Positions 1 through 654 of a stretch of 654 nucleotides of DNA are shown here, one piece after another. Source of the stretch: Escherichia coli (GTDB lineage Bacteria; Pseudomonadota; Gammaproteobacteria; Enterobacterales; Enterobacteriaceae); NCBI RefSeq assembly GCF_003334255.1, contig NZ_QOWU01000203.1, one strand, 5' to 3'. Position 1 is the stretch's first letter; every line of letters begins with the position of its first letter. The notes beneath the pieces are model-generated. The model was given only the letters and a program-made list of their open reading frames with translations, searched no databases and was not told where the DNA came from. Position numbers and translations under genes: made by a program.

Positions 1-105
1 TCTCAGATTCAGATTATGTCGCTCAATGCGCTGAGTGTAACGCTTGCTGATAACGTGCAGCTTTCCCTTCAGGCGTGATTCATACAGCGGCCAGCCATCC
101 GTCAT
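1..105 (-). pseudogene. insB: Downstream continuation of insB in the same frame, after the internal stop. It runs off the window edge and is the remnant of the transposase C-terminal portion.
   Basis: The minus-strand frame continues directly after the TAG as ATG ACG GAT GGC TGG ..., giving [35 protein letters not shown], which matches the recalled InsB segment [36 protein letters not shown]. It is open to position 1. Confidence 0.7.
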
Positions 106-402
106 CTATACCACGACCTCAAAGGCCGACAGCAGGCTCAGAAGACGCTCCAGTGTGGCCAGAGTGCGTTCACCGAAGACGTGCGCCACAACCGTCCTCC
201 GTATCCTGTCATACGCGTAAAACAGCCAGCGCTGACGTGATTTAGCACCGACGTAGCCCCACTGTTCGTCCATTTCAGCGCAGACAATCACATCACTGCC
301 CGGTTGTATGCGCGAGGTTACCGACTGCGGCCTGAGTTTTTTAAGTGACGTAAAACCGTGTTGAGGCCAACGCCCATAATGATGCGTGCACTGGCGCGAC
401 AT
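106..402 (-). CDS. insB: IS1 InsB (transposase catalytic part, insB' frame), ending at a premature in-frame TAG. The ATG at 400..402 is nominal, since the frame is normally entered by -1 frameshift from insA.
   Basis: The six-frame ORF translates to [98 protein letters not shown], which closely resembles the N-terminal ~100 aa of IS1 InsB. It stops at TAG (reverse complement of 106..108), where canonical InsB has ...DVVIWMTDGW... Confidence 0.75.
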
Positions 403-596
403 CCGACGCCATTCATGGCCATATCAATGATTTTCTGGTGCTTACCGGGCTGAGAGGCGGTGTAAGTGAACTGTAGTTGCCATGTTTTACGGCAAGGAGA
501 GCAGAGATAGCGCTGATGTCCGGCAGTGCTTTTGCCGTTACGCACCACGCCTTCAGTAGCGGAGCAGGAAGGACATCTGATGGAAATGGAAGCCAC
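318..596 (-). CDS. insA: IS1 InsA: transposition inhibitor / DNA-binding N-terminal part of the InsAB' transposase (92 aa, GTG start)
   Basis: The six-frame ORF 318..596 (-) translates to [92 protein letters not shown]. It has a CxxC...CxxC zinc-finger arrangement (CPSC...CSPC) and the IS1 InsA C-terminus LKNSGRSR. The start is GTG at 594..596 and the stop is TAA at 318..320. Confidence 0.9.
336..342 (-). other. Programmed -1 ribosomal frameshift site (A6C slippery heptamer) joining insA to the insB' frame
   Basis: The minus strand reads ...CAC TTA AAA AAC TCA GGC CGC AGT CGG TAA in the insA frame. AAAAAAC is the reverse complement of 336..342. The -1 frame after the motif reads [18 protein letters not shown]..., which is the InsB-type continuation. 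Confidence 0.85.
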
Positions 597-651
597 GCAA
601 GCACCTTAAAATCACCATCATACACTAAATCAGTAAGTTGGCAGCATTACC
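597..651 (-). promoter_or_regulatory. insA promoter / operator region within and adjacent to IRL, with a Shine-Dalgarno-like AAGGTG
   Basis: Established IS1 biology places the weak insA promoter partly inside IRL, where InsA binds and autorepresses. In the sequence, a candidate -10 TATGAT lies at minus strand of 617..622, and AAGGTG at minus strand of 602..607 sits 5 nt upstream of the GTG start at 594..596. No convincing -35 was identified. Confidence 0.4.
629..651 (-). repeat. IS1 terminal inverted repeat (IRL, 23 bp), the InsA/transposase binding site
   Basis: The minus strand of 629..651 reads GGTAATGCTGCCAACTTACTGAT. This matches the recalled IS1 IRL GGTGATGCTGCCAACTTACTGAT with one mismatch (GGTAATG, as in the recalled IRR). 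It lies about 55 nt upstream of the insA start. Confidence 0.85.
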
Positions 652-654
652 GAA

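Follow-up and report, generated by a model that had tools for sequence, protein, structure and literature searches.

An amber codon truncates the transposase frame of the IS1F element beside the ferric-citrate genes of Escherichia coli

Results

The window holds a chromosomal IS1F at the edge of the fec module

The stretch of DNA analysed here (654 bases, hereafter the window) is nearly all IS1 element, lying on the minus strand (Table 1). Its alignment with the IS1F of E. coli K-12 covers IS1F positions 1-651 and contains a single 3-bp indel; the final 117 bp of IS1F, including the right inverted repeat (IRR), fall beyond the window edge. Identity to the full-length K-12 IS1F is 99.6% with this indel as the sole difference, which places the element in the IS1F isoform. 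The inverted repeats are also of the IS1 type, as the left one (IRL) is present in the window and the IRR was seen in the matching full-length loci. The IRL is identical to the corresponding end of K-12 IS1F, in agreement with the earlier note on this DNA, which had described it as intact. A consensus scan further detected a promoter-like site in or next to the IRL, at what we take to be the expected position of the IS1 P-IRL promoter.

Table 1 Features of the 654-base window (positions on the plus strand; IRL and IRR, left and right terminal inverted repeats; HTH, helix-turn-helix).
Feature	Position	Strand	Remarks
IS1F insertion sequence	1..651	-	IRL end at 651, running towards IRR
Host flank, 3 bases, ykiE/fecI side	652..654		Common to all fec-linked copies
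Left terminal inverted repeat IRL, GGTAATGCTGCCAACTTACTGAT	629..651	-	Identical to K-12 IS1F end
Promoter-like site CTGCCA, 16 nt spacer, TATGAT	617..644	-	Consensus scan; in or next to IRL
insA ORF	318..596	-	GTG start, 92 codons, TAA at 318-320; from the ORF list
3-bp tandem duplication CAT-CAT	~378-384	-	Extra Ile (I72/I73), first HTH helix
A6C slippery motif AAAAAAC	336..342	-	Direct sequence reading; programmed -1 frameshift from insA to insB'
Still-translatable part of insB' after the frameshift	109..335	-	Translations; NCBIfam transpos_IS1 match
First catalytic Asp, GAC (EMDEQW)	268..270	-	Upstream of the stop; inside Pfam DDE_Tnp_IS1
In-frame amber TAG (TGG/Trp in intact siblings)	106..108	-	Plus-strand T107 is the changed base
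ATG right after the stop	103..105	-	Ordinary Met of the W-M-T-D motif; sometimes called as a start
Second catalytic Asp, GAT (T-D-G-W)	97..99	-	Three codons downstream of the stop
Catalytic Glu, GAG (QRIERHN)	22..24	-	24 residues beyond the second Asp

At 100% identity over its entire length, the window matches the IS1F locus beside ykiE/fecI in strains ATCC 11775, S88, and TW10722, as well as dozens of further complete genomes. At these matching loci the ykiE-fecI neighbour is the start of the ferric-citrate (fec) genes, and the flank on the IRL side, ...GGGGATTTC, is the same in every fec-linked copy. The window is therefore a chromosomal IS1F beside ykiE-fecI, at the edge of the E. coli ferric-citrate (fec) module. 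The insA plus insB' organisation of IS1 is present as well: the conceptual fusion obtained in the -1 frame is collinear with intact IS1 transposases, and the RefSeq/PGAP annotation at the matching loci reads "IS1-like element IS1F family transposase", a pseudogene with "programmed frameshift; internal stop".

The closest described element is the K-12 IS1F itself (MG1655 4518472-4519239; insA7, b4294, and the pseudogene insB7, b4576), for which X52538 is listed as the reference accession (PMC8867978). It shares with the window the ykiE-fecI locus, the ends, and the TAG at IS1F 541-543, with zero substitutions across 651 bases; however, the indel makes the InsA of the window 92 aa long instead of 91 aa and the element 771 bp instead of 768 bp. 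The canonical IS1A and IS1E, which represent the K-12 consensus IS1 and are active in cis (PMC12428005), have the same layout (IRL, insA, A6C, insB', Zn ribbon, HTH, and DDE_Tnp_IS1) in 768 bp, but their identity to K-12 IS1F is only about 90.5-90.8%, and they read D V V I W at the site described below.

An in-frame TAG separates the first catalytic residue of InsAB' from the other two

On the minus strand, positions 120-91 read GAG GTC GTG GTA TAG ATG ACG GAT GGC TGG, that is, E V V V * M T D G W. The earlier note had reported that a TAG interrupts insB within positions 100-114, and this is confirmed, as these positions span GTG GTA TAG ATG ACG. By the K-12 annotation of insB, the TAG is codon 98, which matches the note's estimate of roughly 100 codons. 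Apart from it, the insB' frame has no stop and stays InsB-like between the A6C site and the window edge, and the translation thereby bears out what the note had claimed of the frame. The canonical D V V I W M T D G W, which the note had given for this point, is indeed seen in the co-resident IS1A (GAC GTG GTG ATA TGG ATG ACG). In contrast, the Ile-to-Val change beside the stop, although real, is not a lesion; it is an isoform difference found in intact IS1F-type copies and IS1X2. The TAG lesion itself is already annotated, as the pseudogene insB7 (b4576) in K-12 and as an "internal stop" in RefSeq, and our literature search found nothing relevant on insB7 or on an IS1 insB pseudogene beside fecI.

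A conceptual InsAB', built via the -1 shift at A6C and with the stop replaced by Trp, was used for domain scans. Pfam recognised Zn_ribbon_InsA at residues 1-36, HTH_Tnp_IS1 at residues 43-87, and DDE_Tnp_IS1 at residues 103-233 (E-values: PF03811, 1.9e-18; PF12759, 2.1e-24; PF03400, 3e-73), and NCBIfam NF033558 scored 236.6 bits against a cut-off of 100, so that the domain content is that of the IS1 family. The stop is residue 164 of InsAB' and lies inside DDE_Tnp_IS1. On its two sides, the N-terminal piece matches positions 1-153 of the 199 positions of the NCBIfam transpos_IS1 profile, and the piece after the ATG matches this profile from position 156 onward.

The DDE residues were assigned from the family alignment together with Pfam/NCBIfam. 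In this alignment of 22 IS1-family DDE domains, which includes members as distant as about 40% identity, the D-E pair is conserved (E20 in at least 90%) and T75, D76, W78, E101, R102, and R108 are near-invariant. The window has no uninterrupted InsAB' with all three DDE residues, since the stop precedes the second Asp and the Glu. The earlier claim of a truncated InsAB' thus holds: the product is about 163 aa long, compared with 233 aa for the full-length protein, and ends three codons before the second catalytic Asp. This truncated protein keeps the zinc ribbon, the HTH, and the first Asp and lacks the second Asp and the Glu. Because these two residues are missing, it should be unable to catalyse transposition; from general knowledge of DDE transposases, we infer that it is catalytically dead.

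The residue replaced by the stop had been described as a conserved Trp. This is true among close enterobacterial IS1 (IS1A, IS1X2, and IS1F-type), but not across the family. Among 21 divergent homologues, obtained by a representative search of 1.84 billion proteins and then aligned, the column holds mostly Tyr, followed by Phe/Trp, with a single Ile, Val, and Gly. The column is hence an aromatic/hydrophobic position, on the strand that runs up to the second Asp, and not an invariant Trp.

The ATG directly after the stop had raised the idea of termination-reinitiation at UAG-AUG, by which a 69-aa C-terminal fragment (MTDGW...) would be made that either complements the N-terminal piece or has a function of its own. 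The adjacency of stop and ATG, a GAGG 11 nt upstream of the ATG, and the database ORFs P0083, P0086, and P0096, which were set by gene callers and begin with MTDGW..., fit this idea. However, such ORF calls are artefacts that result from splitting of the frame; every intact IS1 has this ATG as its ordinary W-M-T-D Met, so it did not evolve as a start; and the GAGG is found in intact siblings too. The fragment would also be devoid of the DNA-binding domains and the first catalytic Asp, and the element is immobile on its own (PMC12428005). Reinitiation is thus unsupported, and we consider it extremely improbable; truncation of InsAB' at the stop remains our reading of the locus.

The stop is shared by all fec-linked copies examined

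The exact 76-mer centred on the TAG occurs in 2755 E. coli records, and the same 76-mer with TGG in its place occurs in 2308. As the former are independent complete-genome records and include K-12 MG1655, we rejected a base-call or assembly error at T107, under which the real gene would be intact and to which we assign next to no probability. The six IS1 sequences of K-12 MG1655 have, besides, been re-confirmed by sequencing (PMC12428005).

A query composed of the IRL and the fec-side flank detected the IS1F-fec junction in 2604 records, equal to 2600 of 5426 complete genomes. The TAG is present in every fec-linked copy examined, namely those of K-12, NEBExpress (a B strain), Sanji, ATCC 11775, S88, TW10722, and a plasmid-labelled K. 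oxytoca fragment. Across the examined strains, the fec-side flank is 99.6-99.98% identical (divergence 0.02-0.36%), the fec-linked IS copies differ by 0-5 substitutions (0-0.65%), and 1-3 substitutions separate the copies in the frame downstream of the stop. Judged by these comparisons, the fec-IS1F block appears to be a single module that spread recently, with the stop already in place.

A recent mutation private to one strain was rejected, as all the examined fec-linked copies share the TAG and the junction is found in 2600 genomes. The earlier note had called the nonsense mutation recent; this is right in terms of divergence, as a single G-to-A change separates it from intact siblings, but the mutation is not private and is fixed at fec in strains from diverse parts of the phylogeny.

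The surroundings of the element differ on its two sides, being constant on the IRL side (ykiE-fecI) and variable between strains on the IRR side. There, K-12 has yjhU, whereas the neighbours in ATCC 11775, S88, NEBExpress, and Sanji are a short ORF of hypothetical product, remnants of IS3, and a gene resembling ariR/ymgB (locus L004 from 5241 onward, compared with L001 up to 3880); the strains matching the window have an IS3 remnant and an ariR-like gene at this side. Target-site duplications (8-9 bp) reflect the history of a copy, not its membership in the IS1 family. The TAG copies examined, whether fec-linked, on hly plasmids, or at yjiA-mdtM, all lack such a duplication, and their flanks were probably rearranged after insertion. 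The differing IRR flank, together with the missing duplication, suggests an IS1-mediated deletion or rearrangement on the IRR side.

TAG copies were also seen in two contexts besides fec. Three of them, 770-771 bp in length, are located about 1.5 kb upstream of plasmid hlyC (L009-L011, ~2381-3151), on the IncF plasmids p1046-3E9, 2014EL-1346-6 unnamed4, and pHH107-2, which carry alpha-haemolysin operons; the pHH107-2 copy has an extra 1-bp deletion. The other context is the interval from brnT/yjiA to mdtM in E. coli 30602_6#35 (L069, 1827-2524), where the copy has two extra substitutions (positions 501 and 571). These non-fec copies are haplotype mosaics of the variants seen at fec, and they were either moved by an intact relative or received the TAG by gene conversion. 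Given these two further contexts, the TAG may have originated either at fec or on the element before it came there.

A 3-bp duplication in insA marks the sub-lineage of the window

The indel that distinguishes the window from K-12 IS1F is a tandem duplication of CAT, which affects the HTH of both InsA and the truncated InsAB'. A single CAT is present in K-12 IS1F, the intact siblings (including the O157 copy), IS1X2, and IS1A. The exact 76-mer with CATCAT occurs in 66 E. coli records, compared with 3943 records in the 95-99% band, and all the sampled members of this band stand at 96.1%, which corresponds to the 3-bp gap. The duplication is found on two IS1F haplotype backgrounds, the fec-linked ATCC 11775 type and the hly-plasmid type; this distribution suggests that slippage recurred or that gene conversion was at work. 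InsA, which the earlier note had regarded as intact, is so in its open reading frame; its function, however, is doubtful in view of this rare extra Ile in the HTH.

These data bear on whether the damaged element is retained for some use, with the truncated InsAB' and InsA serving as a repressor or poison of intact IS1F-type elements, or with IS1F serving as a regulatory sequence for ykiE/fec. InsA is known to repress and inhibit IS1, the N-terminal DNA-binding domains are still encoded here, and the copy has been kept at one locus in 2600 genomes; insA7 (b4294) is, moreover, transcribed in K-12 (PMC6462304). On the other hand, the divergence of the IS copies is not below that of the flank and gives no sign of extra constraint, the further HTH insertion in the sub-lineage of the window looks like ongoing decay, and linkage to a recently spread module accounts for the retention without selection. 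Such usefulness therefore seems very unlikely to us, and we favour passive inheritance of the interrupted element with the fec module.

Near-identical intact siblings read TGG

Intact IS1F-type elements (WP_094106546.1, e.g., in E. coli EBJ003 and USVAST219; WP_226209016.1 in O157:H7) are 99.0-99.3% identical to K-12 IS1F, share its ends and the Val before the site, and read TGG where it has TAG; both are annotated as a complete transposase with programmed frameshift. IS1F position 542 is A in all the TAG copies examined (fec-linked, hly-plasmid, and yjiA-mdtM), whereas it is G in the intact copies L007, L008, L070, and L071. Compared with K-12 IS1F, L070 and L071, which encode WP_094106546.1, show 5 differences in 768 positions, including position 542 (G for A); their transposase bears the "programmed frameshift" note and no pseudogene label. 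Since the fec-linked copies also vary at the other four positions, the TAG base is nearly all that sets some of them apart from the intact element. A perfect 9-bp duplication, TATTATGCA, brackets L071 and indicates true transposition, and the intact L008 likewise has a 9-bp duplication. The O157:H7 copy (99.0% identical) and an IS1X2 copy (95.6%) read TGG as well. By these alignments, the stop is one G-to-A transition away from an active element.

The O157:H7 copy (L007, 2312-3079, strain E32511) adjoins an OspG-family effector gene and prophage tail-fibre genes. It has three private non-synonymous changes in InsB' (F to L, L to P, and V to D) and no target duplication, and may be functionally impaired despite its open frame.

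Species-representative genomes were scanned with a 30-mer around the site, using R at the variable base, and gave TGG 58 times and TAG once; the E. coli representative was not among the matches although ATCC 11775 does hold the TAG pattern, so these counts carry no information on E. coli. The sole TAG match is a 547-bp contig (L043) in the assembly of the myxobacterium Archangium violaceum Cb vi76, which is probably E. coli IS1F contamination. Dozens of the TGG copies come from Mixta sp. Marseille-Q2659 and Mixta mediterraneensis (L015-L038 and L044-L062), so that an IS1F-like element seems to have undergone a large and recent expansion in Mixta, outside Escherichia.

The stop would suffice to explain IS1F immobility

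Published mobility data on the K-12 copy can be set against these findings. In BW25113 only IS1A and IS1E transpose, and no IS1 insertions could be detected in a strain left with IS1B, C, D, and F alone (PMC12428005). When InsAB' was over-produced in such an IS1B/C/D/F-only strain, IS1F accounted for 44% of 48 sequenced insertions, a value that applies to the K-12 copy, which is without the extra Ile of the window, and the K-12 IS1F IRL was found to work in trans (PMC12903888). Mobilisation in trans, which the earlier note had considered feasible, is thus supported by both studies, as K-12 IS1F moves under InsAB' over-production and no movement was detected without it. Consistently, IS1F is single-copy in MG1655, W3110, DH10B, BL21(DE3), and REL606, where IS1A-type elements have 6-28 copies (PMC6462304).

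The two 2025 K-12 mobility papers either give the cause of IS1F immobility as unknown or put it down to amino-acid substitutions, and the nonsense codon of IS1F is mentioned in neither (PMC12428005, PMC12903888). The TAG would be a sufficient and simpler explanation; against it as the cause, IS1B, C, and D are likewise immobile in the same assays, yet have no stop (PMC12428005). The occurrence of TAG copies in three contexts is, at the level of sequence, consistent with a non-autonomous element that can be mobilised in trans.

Alternatively, ribosomes could pass the amber codon, through basal read-through or with the help of a suppressor tRNA. Some full-length InsAB' would then be produced, and the autonomy of the copy would be weak or conditional. 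In favour of this, the frame beyond the stop has stayed open with hardly any change, and the Trp column accepts Tyr, Phe, Trp, and some aliphatics, which means that an enzyme restored by a Tyr-inserting suppressor would probably be active; moreover, many cloning hosts carry supE44. IS1F has also been found in Addgene plasmids, in at most five of them (PMC8867978), but these insertions are explained equally well by mobilisation in trans by IS1A. Against read-through, the full-length product would require a rare frameshift and a rare read-through event together, and amber suppressors are rare in natural isolates. Furthermore, IS1F remains single-copy in the K-12 and B lineages (PMC6462304), and no insertions were detected from the IS1B/C/D/F-only strain (PMC12428005). 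We accordingly hold read-through to be very improbable in general, suppressor-carrying laboratory hosts being a possible exception, and continue to regard IS1F as non-autonomous. A further proposal is that the amber IS1F is active conditionally, in hosts with Tyr or Gln suppressors, or that the 163-aa fragment is dominant-negative on intact siblings. Regained autonomy in suppressor hosts is conceivable, since across the IS1 family this column most often holds Tyr, and intact IS1F-type siblings are found in many genomes that also carry the amber IS1F; we nevertheless think this proposal unlikely.

Discussion

Taken together, the window is best explained as a fec-linked IS1F with an inherited TAG and a truncated InsAB', which is non-autonomous but can be mobilised in trans, and we hold this explanation with high confidence. 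A single G-to-A transition would have turned a TGG (Trp) codon of insB' into TAG shortly before the second catalytic Asp. Following the -1 frameshift at A6C, the ribosome would then make a protein of about 163 aa that is predicted to be unable to catalyse transposition. Because this product is without the second Asp and the Glu, IS1F would be non-autonomous; because its ends are intact, InsAB' from an intact IS1 could still move it. With regard to the order of events, we infer that the TAG predates the spread of the fec-IS1F module through E. coli and was then inherited with the module, and that the window represents a small sub-lineage which gained the 3-bp duplication in the insA HTH later.

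As a general class, trans-mobilised non-autonomous IS copies likewise combine functional ends with a defective transposase gene. The IS1F in the window is, however, a full-length element with one point lesion and a small in-frame duplication, and not an internally deleted miniature element.

The finding is ordinary and already known, and its value is mostly that of bookkeeping. It has a modest use in that the nonsense codon offers a simpler reason for the immobility of IS1F than those given in the 2025 papers. In addition, the TAG copies and their near-identical intact siblings constitute a natural non-autonomous IS1, which has perhaps been moved or gene-converted by its active relatives.
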